Shown one piece after another: positions 23,109 to 25,897 of a stretch of DNA of 64,000 bases; position 1 is the first letter of the stretch; the number at the start of each line of letters is the position of its first letter. The translations under genes were made by a program, and so were the position numbers. This stretch comes from Escherichia phage vB_EcoM_EP32a: the sequence record OR544954, one strand, 5' to 3'. The notes under the pieces are model-generated. The model did not search any database and was not told where the DNA came from. It worked only from the letters and a program-made list of their open reading frames with translations.

Positions 23109-23471
23109 ATGAAAGCATATCAAATTCTTGAAGGTGCACATAAAGGCACTATTTATTTTGAAGACGGTACTCAAGCCAGGATTATTGTCTCTAAGACTTT
23201 TAAAGAAGACGCTATTGTAGACCCGGAAATTTTCTACGGTTTGAATGCCCGTGAAATTGAAATTGAACATCAACCTAAAGTTAAAATTGAAGGTGGACAA
23301 CATCTGAACGTTAACGTTCTGCGTCGTGAAACTCTAGAAGATGCAGTTAAGCATCCAGAAAAATATCCGCAGCTGACCATCCGTGTATCTGGTTATGCAG
23401 TTCGCTTTAACTCTCTGACTCCGGAACAGCAGCGTGACGTTATCGCTCGCACCTTTACTGAGAGTCTATAA
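23109..23471 (+). CDS. autonomous glycyl-radical cofactor (GrcA/YfiD-like; cf. T4 Y06I)
   Basis: C-terminal [59 protein letters not shown], glycyl-radical motif RVSGY. Confidence 0.9.
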
Positions 23472-23815: not shown

Positions 23816-23850
23816 TAGTTTACTTCTCCTCTAGTTGTGTTACTATAGAC
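23816..23850 (+). promoter_or_regulatory. T4-type early promoter
   Basis: GTTTAC ... TACTAT with flanking CTAGAGG/CTAGAGG-type repeat. Confidence 0.45.
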
Positions 23851-24341: not shown

Positions 24342-24884
24342 ATGAGAAAAGCACTACTCGCTGGTCTATTTGCTCTTTCATTATCAGCACATAGCTCCGA
24401 GCATACTTTTAGTAATGTCCAACTCGATAACTTGAATTATGCTTATCAGTTTGGGGAACAGTTTTCTAAGGACGGAAAATTTAAAACGCATGAAAATATG
24501 CATAAGAAAGGACTTGGATACATAATGGCCGCAATACTATGGCAAGAATCATCTGCCGGTATTAATCTTAAAGATAAGAAAGGTCACCATGCGTATGGAA
24601 TGTTCCAAAATTATCTACCAACAATGAGGGCAAGAATTAACCAGCTTGGTTATAATATGACTGATGCCCAAATTAAGAAAATGCTATCTAAGCGGTCTAA
24701 TTCAGCCAGATGGGCTTATATCGAATTTTCTTATTGGTTAAATATACATAACGGGGATATAAGAAAAGCTATATCCTCATATAATGCGGGATGGAAGACA
24801 AGTGCTGGAAGTAAATATGCTTCTGAAGTCCTAGAAAAGGCTAATTACCTTAAATCAAATAAACTACTGGAAATAAAAGAATGA
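24342..24884 (+). CDS. secreted lytic-transglycosylase-like (SLT-domain) protein
   Basis: Signal peptide MRKALLAGLFALSLSAHS; WQESS...GMFQ core. Confidence 0.6.
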   Translation: MRKALLAGLFALSLSAHSSEHTFSNVQLDNLNYAYQFGEQFSKDGKFKTHENMHKKGLGYIMAAILWQESSAGINLKDKKGHHAYGMFQNYLPTMRARINQLGYNMTDAQIKKMLSKRSNSARWAYIEFSYWLNIHNGDIRKAISSYNAGWKTSAGSKYASEVLEKANYLKSNKLLEIKE

Positions 24885-25228
24885 CCAAAATGTTGGCTTT
24901 AATAGTTAGCTTGGTTTCATTTAACGCTCTTGCTAATACTACATATACTGATGTAACGGAGTATACAAACAGAACGGCGTCTGATTATTGTGGTAAAAGT
25001 CAAGAGTGTAAAGTAGATTTTTCACAAAAATTGTTATACGCGTATAAAGACGGAGAAAAAGATGGGGCGTCTAGTAGGTTCAAGGCGTCTACCTTAATTA
25101 AAAGATACTATAAAAAATGGCAAATATTAGAATGCTCGGTGGCGGAACCTAAAGATAAGGCAGCATGCAATTCTATGGTGGACCGTCTAGTTGACTCTTA
25201 TAATAGAGGACTTGCAGCAAGTGATTAA
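24881..25228 (+). CDS. secreted Cys-containing protein
   Basis: Signal peptide MTKMLALIVSLVSFNALA; 115 aa. Confidence 0.55.
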   Translation: MTKMLALIVSLVSFNALANTTYTDVTEYTNRTASDYCGKSQECKVDFSQKLLYAYKDGEKDGASSRFKASTLIKRYYKKWQILECSVAEPKDKAACNSMVDRLVDSYNRGLAASD

Positions 25229-25688
25229 AAACTACATCAAGGGCGATATTGTCGCCCTGTTTTCTAAAGGTAATAATATTGCTCATGGGTGTAATTGTTT
25301 TCATACAATGGGCGCCGGTGTAGCAGGCCAATTAGCAAAGGCTTATCCAAAAATTTTAGAAGCCGATAAACTTCAAACCGAATTCGGAGACGAGTCTAAA
25401 CTCGGGTCTTATTCGGTTTATGAAAAATATTTTAAGACCCATAAAGCTTATTGCTTTAATCTTTATACGCAGTTTGAGCCTGGACCTAATTTTGAGTACT
25501 CTGCTTTAATGAATTGTATAATAGAATTAAATGAATTCGGAAAGAATAAGATAACAAAGCCTGTAATTTATATGCCAAGAATTGGTGCAGGTATCGGTGG
25601 TGGAAACTGGGATGTCATCGAAGAGATTTTAGATACGTATTCCACTAAACTAGAAATTGTGATTGTTGATTGGGAACCATTATTATGA
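25191..25688 (+). CDS. macro-domain protein (ADP-ribose binding/processing fold)
   Basis: GDIVALFSKGNNIAHGCNCFHTMGAGVAGQLAKAYP; non-ATG start (TTG 25191 or GTG 25221). Confidence 0.6.
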   Translation: MTLIIEDLQQVIKNYIKGDIVALFSKGNNIAHGCNCFHTMGAGVAGQLAKAYPKILEADKLQTEFGDESKLGSYSVYEKYFKTHKAYCFNLYTQFEPGPNFEYSALMNCIIELNEFGKNKITKPVIYMPRIGAGIGGGNWDVIEEILDTYSTKLEIVIVDWEPLL

Positions 25689-25897
25689 ATATACATTATC
25701 CACATCCATATGACCCAAAGAATAAGGCAGTAATTATTCGTCAATGGGAACGCATTTGCCGTACCAAATGTCCAATTAATAGTCTACATGATGTAGATAA
25801 AGACTACATTGGAACATTCGTTGAATATACCTTTATTGATAAGAAAGGTCGTAAACAGCATGTAGAAGAATACTGCTTAAAGGTGACATGGTTATGA
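25685..25897 (+). CDS. hypothetical protein
   Basis: ATG 25685 overlapping upstream stop. Confidence 0.5.
   Translation: MNIHYPHPYDPKNKAVIIRQWERICRTKCPINSLHDVDKDYIGTFVEYTFIDKKGRKQHVEEYCLKVTWL

Follow-up and report, generated by a model that had tools for sequence, protein, structure and literature searches.

The window analysed here (64,000 nt of Escherichia phage vB_EcoM_EP32a, sequence record OR544954) was found to carry a GTG-initiated gene which, on the basis of its sequence, is the Mosigvirus (RB69-type) orthologue of T4 tk.4/adfM. Its product is, as judged from structural modelling, a stand-alone macrodomain of 155 aa belonging to the ALC1/TARG1/DarG class, and we infer for this allele, with good confidence, a function in counter-defence against the host system DarTG2 through the de-ADP-ribosylation of DNA. 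The tk.4/adfM gene has already been named and assigned this function, and to that extent the result is already known. What is added here is a Gln-type active site, a conserved hairpin within the gene and the identification of annotation errors in public records.

The gene and its ribosome-binding site are placed as follows:

25221..25688, + strand: coding sequence of tk.4/adfM, which begins with GTG, ends with TGA (25686-25688) and encodes a stand-alone macrodomain of 155 aa

25206..25210, + strand: Shine-Dalgarno sequence GAGGA, 10 nt 5' of the GTG, invariant in all five aligned T-even sequences

A preliminary description of the region had begun the ORF at 25191 and had remarked that it possesses no ATG start. 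The latter is correct, but the true start is the GTG at 25221. The peptide cited in that description does lie within a single plus-strand ORF (25191-25688), of which TTG 25191 is merely the first possible start past an upstream stop. This start was rejected, as its 10 extra codons overlap the vs gene and are missing from every homologue, while GTG 25221 matches the ATG start of T4-type tk.4 genes in a DNA alignment of the window with two other Mosigvirus and two Tequatrovirus genomes. GTG 25221 is also the start used in the GenBank record of RB69, and 155-aa products starting MIKNYIKGD have also been predicted by gene callers in a large protein collection. This start and the TGA at 25686-25688 thus define a gene of 25221-25688 encoding 155 aa.

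An internal ATG start (Met30) was likewise rejected, as it would remove strands 1 and 2 together with Asn25 from a confidently predicted fold. It is nevertheless the start given in the GenBank records of phages AV110 (L001 4118-4498) and JM17 (L004 718-1095), where it is equivalent to window position 25308 and where its use cuts 29 residues off the beginning of the macro fold; this is evidently a misannotation, the true start being the GTG. Some Mosigvirus records therefore truncate the gene and many name its product a "phosphatase", both of which mislead automated surveys of counter-defence genes.

The genes on either side of adfM are:

24881..25228, + strand: vs (valyl-tRNA synthetase modifier), upstream gene, in the same order as in T4

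25685..25897, + strand: tk.3-like downstream gene, from the sequence and from the AV110 annotation mapped onto the window

Because of a single-base deletion compared with T4, the end of vs is displaced, and its stop codon (TAA, 25226-25228) overlaps the adfM GTG as GTGATTAA, giving an 8-nt overlap; the adfM stop codon in turn overlaps the ATG of the tk.3-like gene as ATGA. The gene order of the window (regB, vs.1, vs, tk.4, tk.3-like, small ORFs, tk, rI) is that of T4. The window is itself of the Mosigvirus (RB69-like) type. The best match was found in Escherichia phage AV110 (Mosigvirus, RB69-like), which is identical across 155 of 155 residues, and RB69, whose GenBank record names the gene tk.4, shares 97.5% DNA identity. 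T4 Tk.4 (NP_049723, annotated "phosphatase; contains A1pp phosphatase motif") is identical at 132 of 155 positions (85%) over its full length with no gaps (E 2e-105 in a protein-level comparison). The dN/dS against the T4-type allele is 0.06, indicating purifying selection.

Some variation was observed around and within the gene in related phages. In RB69 (L011 833-1015) tk.2 directly follows tk.4, at the place where the window and AV110 have the tk.3-like gene, and the DNA match to RB69 ends at window position 25678, a small indel difference inside the genus. Within Tequatrovirus, tk.4 occurs as two allele classes, represented by fPS-2 (L002 3001-3480) and T4 (L010 3426-3890, minus strand). 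The type found in T4, T2, BYEP01 and PYps35T encodes 155 aa and is ~85% identical to the window protein, while the fPS-2 type encodes 159 aa and is ~58% identical to it. The 5' 45 codons are far more alike between these two classes than the remainder of the gene, a pattern which suggests recombination with a breakpoint inside tk.4. In Citrobacter phage CF1 (L009 404-858) the annotation splits the tk.4 homologue into two successive ORFs, and tblastn likewise aligns it only in two pieces; from the sequence this reads as a frameshift, the locus being either a pseudogene or affected by a sequencing error. Further upstream in the window, a 120-aa ORF (23109-23471, plus strand) has a C-terminus (…RVSGYAVRF…) resembling a glycyl-radical motif; its relatives in related phages are annotated "autonomous glycyl radical cofactor GrcA" or "pyruvate formate-lyase".

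The protein matches the Pfam Macro family (PF01661) with 27.4 bits against a gathering cut-off of 22 (E 3.6e-6, profile positions 2-117 of 118), and PHROG 335 with an E-value of 1.5e-66. An AlphaFold2 model built on 87 homologues (mean pLDDT 95.2, pTM 0.90) has six strands and five helices alternating as expected, giving a predicted three-layer alpha/beta/alpha fold with a mixed six-stranded sheet, as is characteristic of PF01661. The nearest structural neighbours belong to the ALC1/TARG1/DarG class, clearly ahead of the MacroD, PARG and viral types, and a PDB sequence search returned the same set with the addition of SCO6735. The preliminary description had proposed a macrodomain and had named fold prediction beforehand as a test capable of refuting it; the proposal is strongly supported by that test. 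The core had been placed at the N-terminus, but the fold spans the whole protein.

The residues forming the predicted ADP-ribose pocket are encoded at:

25293..25295, + strand: codon of Asn25, the macrodomain Asn in HGCNC, at least 90% conserved among 87 homologues

25311..25328, + strand: codons of GAGVAG (residues 31-36), first Gly-rich ADP-ribose/phosphate-binding loop, aligning with TARG1 MGAGIA

25470..25472, + strand: codon of Gln84 (motif N-L-Y-T-Q), which takes the place of the catalytic Lys in TARG1 and DarG and is invariant in 87 homologues

25575..25610, + strand: codons of PRIGAGIGGGNW (residues 119-130), second Gly-rich substrate-binding loop, by alignment to TARG1 PRIGCGLDRLQW

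Residues invariant across the 87 homologues include N80, Y82 and Q84 (N-x-Y-T-Q), P119, I121, G122 and G124, with G33 and A35 of the first Gly-rich loop also invariant and G31 of that loop nearly so; H22, G23, N25, G127, G128 and W130 are likewise nearly invariant. Asn25 is probably equivalent to the conserved catalytic-site Asn of the AdfM of phage PhiKZ, mutation of which lowers activity (PMC13309987).

In hhalign comparisons Gln84 pairs with TARG1 K84 and Gly126 with TARG1 Asp125 (the TARG1 sequence used is 100% identical to PDB 2LGR), so the Lys-Asp dyad mechanism of TARG1 cannot apply. Gln84 also pairs with Gln85 of SCO6735, with NLYTQ (likewise present in T4 Tk.4) opposite NMIGQ and GAGIGGGNW opposite GCGLAGGTW. 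After Q84-F-E there is a 5-residue gap in the phage protein, where SCO6735 and Bt_1257 carry a longer "mobile loop", and the loop is as long as that in TARG1, position 84 being separated from Tyr93 by 8 residues. The hhalign results were preferred here as the longer loop of Bt_1257 and SCO6735 causes MAFFT to mis-register them near the catalytic position, and a phmmer alignment to Bt_1257 also mis-registers the catalytic-position strand.

Gln85 of SCO6735 has been reported to be the structural equivalent of TARG1 Lys84 and DarG Lys80, and the Q85A exchange abolishes its activity (PMC9411070). SCO6735 efficiently cleaves the thymidine-ADP-ribose (T-ADPr) made by DarT and rescues DarT toxicity; an activated-water mechanism has been proposed for it, and T-ADPr reversal has been proposed as a unifying activity of the class (PMC9411070). 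With its catalytic Lys replaced by Gln84 and no TARG1-type Asp, the phage protein probably uses catalysis of the SCO6735 type, in which Gln84 would position the distal ribose for attack by an activated water and, by this analogy, would be essential for activity. The Gln-for-Lys site thus suggests that T-even AdfM works like SCO6735 and not like DarG. Taking site and loop together, T-even AdfM appears to be a Gln-type enzyme with a loop of TARG1 length, neither a DarG nor a full member of the SCO6735 long-loop type. A Gln-type active site of T-even AdfM was not found in the available text of the two AdfM papers (bioRxiv 10.1101/2025.11.20.689424; PMC13309987).

Evidence on the function comes from T4. 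According to a 2025 preprint, tk.4 was the sole gene specifically depleted on a DarTG2 host in a T4 transposon-insertion screen while being dispensable on plain K-12, and a clean tk.4 deletion rendered T4 sensitive to DarTG2, upon which the gene was renamed adfM (bioRxiv 10.1101/2025.11.20.689424). This evidence is genetic, de-ADP-ribosylation by T4 AdfM having been deduced there from its similarity to DarG. DarT2 is known to ADP-ribosylate thymidines in ssDNA, a modification reversed by the DarG2 macrodomain (PMC11825919). Another phage macrodomain of an unrelated lineage, PhiKZ gp104 (also AdfM), has been reported to strip the ADP-ribose from a TNTC oligonucleotide modified by DarT2 in vitro and to relieve DarT2 toxicity (PMC13309987). 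The proposed course of events is that the host toxin DarT2 would ADP-ribosylate thymidines of single-stranded phage DNA and block replication, and that the phage macrodomain would bind the ADP-ribosyl-thymidine and hydrolyse the ribose-base bond to restore normal DNA, the phage in effect supplying an "orphan antitoxin" of its own. The preliminary description had left open whether the mark was on protein or DNA and whether it came from host defence or from phage enzymes. Since T4 tk.4 genetics concern the DNA-modifying DarTG2, the interpretation can be narrowed to DNA de-ADP-ribosylation; the host-defence part of the proposal is upheld by the 85% identity to T4 Tk.4 and the DarTG2 sensitivity of T4 lacking it, and no support was obtained for marks made by phage enzymes.

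A role in erasing the ADP-ribosylation or RNAylation produced by phage Alt, ModA and ModB, or in countering some other RNA- or protein-ADP-ribosylating defence, is considered most improbable. T-even phages do encode three ADP-ribosyltransferases, but Alt and Mod modify arginine, a linkage classically removed by ARH-family hydrolases and not by macrodomains. Enzymes of the TARG1 class accept several substrate types, with SCO6735 acting on protein as well (PMC9411070), which would allow such a role; yet in the T4 screen tk.4 could be lost without effect on plain K-12, its depletion being specific to the DarTG2 host (bioRxiv 10.1101/2025.11.20.689424). A housekeeping activity on small NAD-derived metabolites instead of DNA, as an ADP-ribose-1''-phosphate phosphatase or O-acetyl-ADP-ribose deacetylase, was also considered, but DarTG2 sensitivity is the sole phenotype known for the T4 orthologue (bioRxiv 10.1101/2025.11.20.689424). 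The database names "phosphatase", "Poa1p-like" and "O-acetyl-ADP-ribose deacetylase" imply such an activity, but they have been transferred by homology, and Poa1p has a Ser at the position aligned to Gln84 by phmmer. Furthermore, we know of no T4 pathway that makes Appr-1''-p, and there is very little probability that this reading is the correct one.

It is also conceivable, but unlikely, that the protein protects mainly by stoichiometric binding and inhibition of DarT2, or by sequestering ADP-ribosylated DNA, and not by hydrolysis. The classical catalytic Lys is absent from the window protein, and DarT inhibition in vitro is retained by each of the catalytically dead variants SCO6735 Q85A, DarG K80A and TARG1 K84A, SCO6735 being the strongest of these inhibitors (PMC9411070); for this reason the protein may, as a secondary effect, also block DarT2 stoichiometrically. 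However, SCO6735, which has the same Gln, is a fast hydrolase (PMC9411070), the window protein is without the C-terminal DarT-binding domain of DarG, and all residues of the ADP-ribose pocket, Gln84 and Asn25 among them, are fully or almost fully conserved across distant phages, as would be the case for an enzyme. Hydrolytic removal of ADP-ribose from DNA is thus retained as the preferred reading.

Two further observations are consistent with this function. Phage T5 is strongly restricted by DarTG2 (PMC11825919), and a profile search of its genome (NC_005859, L091-L093) found no Tk.4-family homologue (best E 0.37). In a review summarising LeRoux 2022, RB69 is given as a target of DarTG1 and T5 and SECphi18 as targets of DarTG2, RB69 not being among the DarTG2 targets named. 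As a separate observation, T5 carries two ORFs annotated Sir2 (T5.102 and T5.105). The result implies that an intact anti-DarTG2 macrodomain is present in RB69-like phages. Their anti-DarTG1 factors AdfA and AdfN have been reported to be non-functional alleles (PMC11825919), a combination which helps to explain the differing sensitivity of the group to the two DarTG types.

Two elements which may bear on the expression of adfM were identified:

23818..23846, + strand: T4-early-promoter-like site GTTTAC-17 nt-TACTAT, upstream of regB

25240..25266, + strand: terminator-like 8-bp GC-rich hairpin AGGGCGAT-ATT-GTCGCCCT followed by GTTTTCT, from a terminator scan

The position of the first agrees with a "predicted early promoter" upstream of regB in the fPS-2 annotation, and it is probably the source of the transcripts reaching adfM; a sigma-70 promoter scan gave no more sites than shuffled sequence. 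The placement of the gene in an early-gene block, as had been suggested, is therefore plausible, the gene following regB-vs.1-vs as in T4 with an early-promoter-like site upstream of regB.

The hairpin itself (25240-25258) lies within codons 7-13, or codons 7-15 (KGDIVALFS) when the T-tract is included. Alleles sharing only 58% identity in protein agree at every one of the 23 nt around it (100% identity), identity at third codon positions is 0.8 over the first 30 codons compared with 0.3-0.5 further on, and the annotators of fPS-2 had placed a predicted terminator at the same site. Compensatory stem changes were found in EcS1, ECD7 and the loci L025, L041 and L042, with the stem kept in Kagamiyamavirus, Krischvirus and metagenomic relatives. 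Stem pair 2 changes from G-C to A-T in EcS1 and L025, pair 5 from C-G to A-T in L041 and L042, and pair 8 from U·G to C-G or U-A in other T4-like genera, while the loop varies freely (ATT, ATC, ATA, TTG, CTC, TTA). The full stem is present in about half of 27 T4-like loci and absent from about half. The covariation score exceeded those of 500 of 500 shuffles and of every slid register, though among related sequences, and so is only suggestive of a conserved hairpin. An Rfam scan of 24800-25800 returned sub-threshold chance matches only.

The minimum-free-energy fold of 25204-25267 (plus strand) brings the Shine-Dalgarno stretch UAGAGGAC into pairing with the GUUUUCUA tract which follows the hairpin (z = -2.1, a weak value), and such pairing could occlude the initiation of adfM translation. 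The hairpin is probably a terminator or attenuator of vs transcripts between vs and tk.4 which limits adfM expression, and the gene may be expressed at a low level owing to its GTG start and to the presence of such a hairpin within its first 40 nt. A broader reading, which we put forward tentatively and consider somewhat more doubtful than not, is that T-even AdfM represents a third active-site solution for reversing DarT2 damage, an invariant Gln84 in a loop of TARG1 length, with its dosage possibly set by a hairpin/U-tract RNA element in codons 7-15, the U-tract of which may pair with the Shine-Dalgarno sequence. If true, this solution would be neither of the Lys type (DarG, PhiKZ AdfM) nor of the SCO6735 long-loop type, and vs transcripts would be terminated or attenuated such that expression of the counter-defence gene is coupled to read-through.

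Several known macrodomains can be compared with the window protein. Yeast Poa1p (6LFQ), an ADP-ribose 1''-phosphate phosphatase, resembles it in fold and sequence but acts on a small molecule and has a Ser aligned to Gln84. In human TARG1/OARD1 (4J5S, 2LGR) the catalytic residues K84 and D125 correspond to Q84 and G126. DarG was the sole family matched in the PADLOC and NCBIfam libraries and in its macro part only, the match to the DarG profiles (NF048014/PADLOC) being restricted to positions 4-146 of 329/338 and the score against the equivalog NF048014 being 32 bits compared with a cut-off of 250. An assignment as DarG proper was rejected on these grounds and because Gln84 replaces the catalytic Lys80 of the DarG2 macrodomains (T. 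aquaticus 5M31/5M3E, M. tuberculosis 5M3I, Thermosipho DarTG 7OMU). Furthermore, the window gene has no adjacent darT, its neighbours being vs and tk.3, and the protein ends at residue 155.

PhiKZ gp104 (L005 12518-13006; Cell Rep 2026, PMC13309987), the one phage AdfM for which biochemical tests have been reported, is also a phage-encoded stand-alone macrodomain which counters DarTG2, but its sequence has a DarG-like Lys (FPTK) and it is imported into a phage nucleus. A close kinship was rejected as the similarity is remote, with BLASTP aligning 23 residues and hhalign giving an E-value of 9e-10. In the latter alignment the Lys falls one residue off Gln84 at low confidence, and the two residues are probably equivalent. 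The name AdfM now covers two independent acquisitions, the PhiKZ Lys type and the T-even family. SCO6735 (PDB 5E3B) and Bt_1257 (2FG1/2AFC), of the Gln-type ALC1-like subclass, are ~23-30% identical to the window protein and share with it the Gln at the catalytic position and the lack of an Asp125 equivalent. However, the "mobile loop" which follows the Gln is shorter by 5 residues in the phage protein, which does not have the extended loop of that subclass, and SCO6735 and Bt_1257 are cellular proteins and not phage counter-defence factors. The closest comparison is with T4 Tk.4/AdfM, which has the same place between vs and tk.3, the same NLYTQ, the same Gly-rich loops and the same 5' hairpin, and from which the window gene differs in its GTG in place of ATG, its vs overlap of 8 nt in place of 4 nt, and 23 substitutions.
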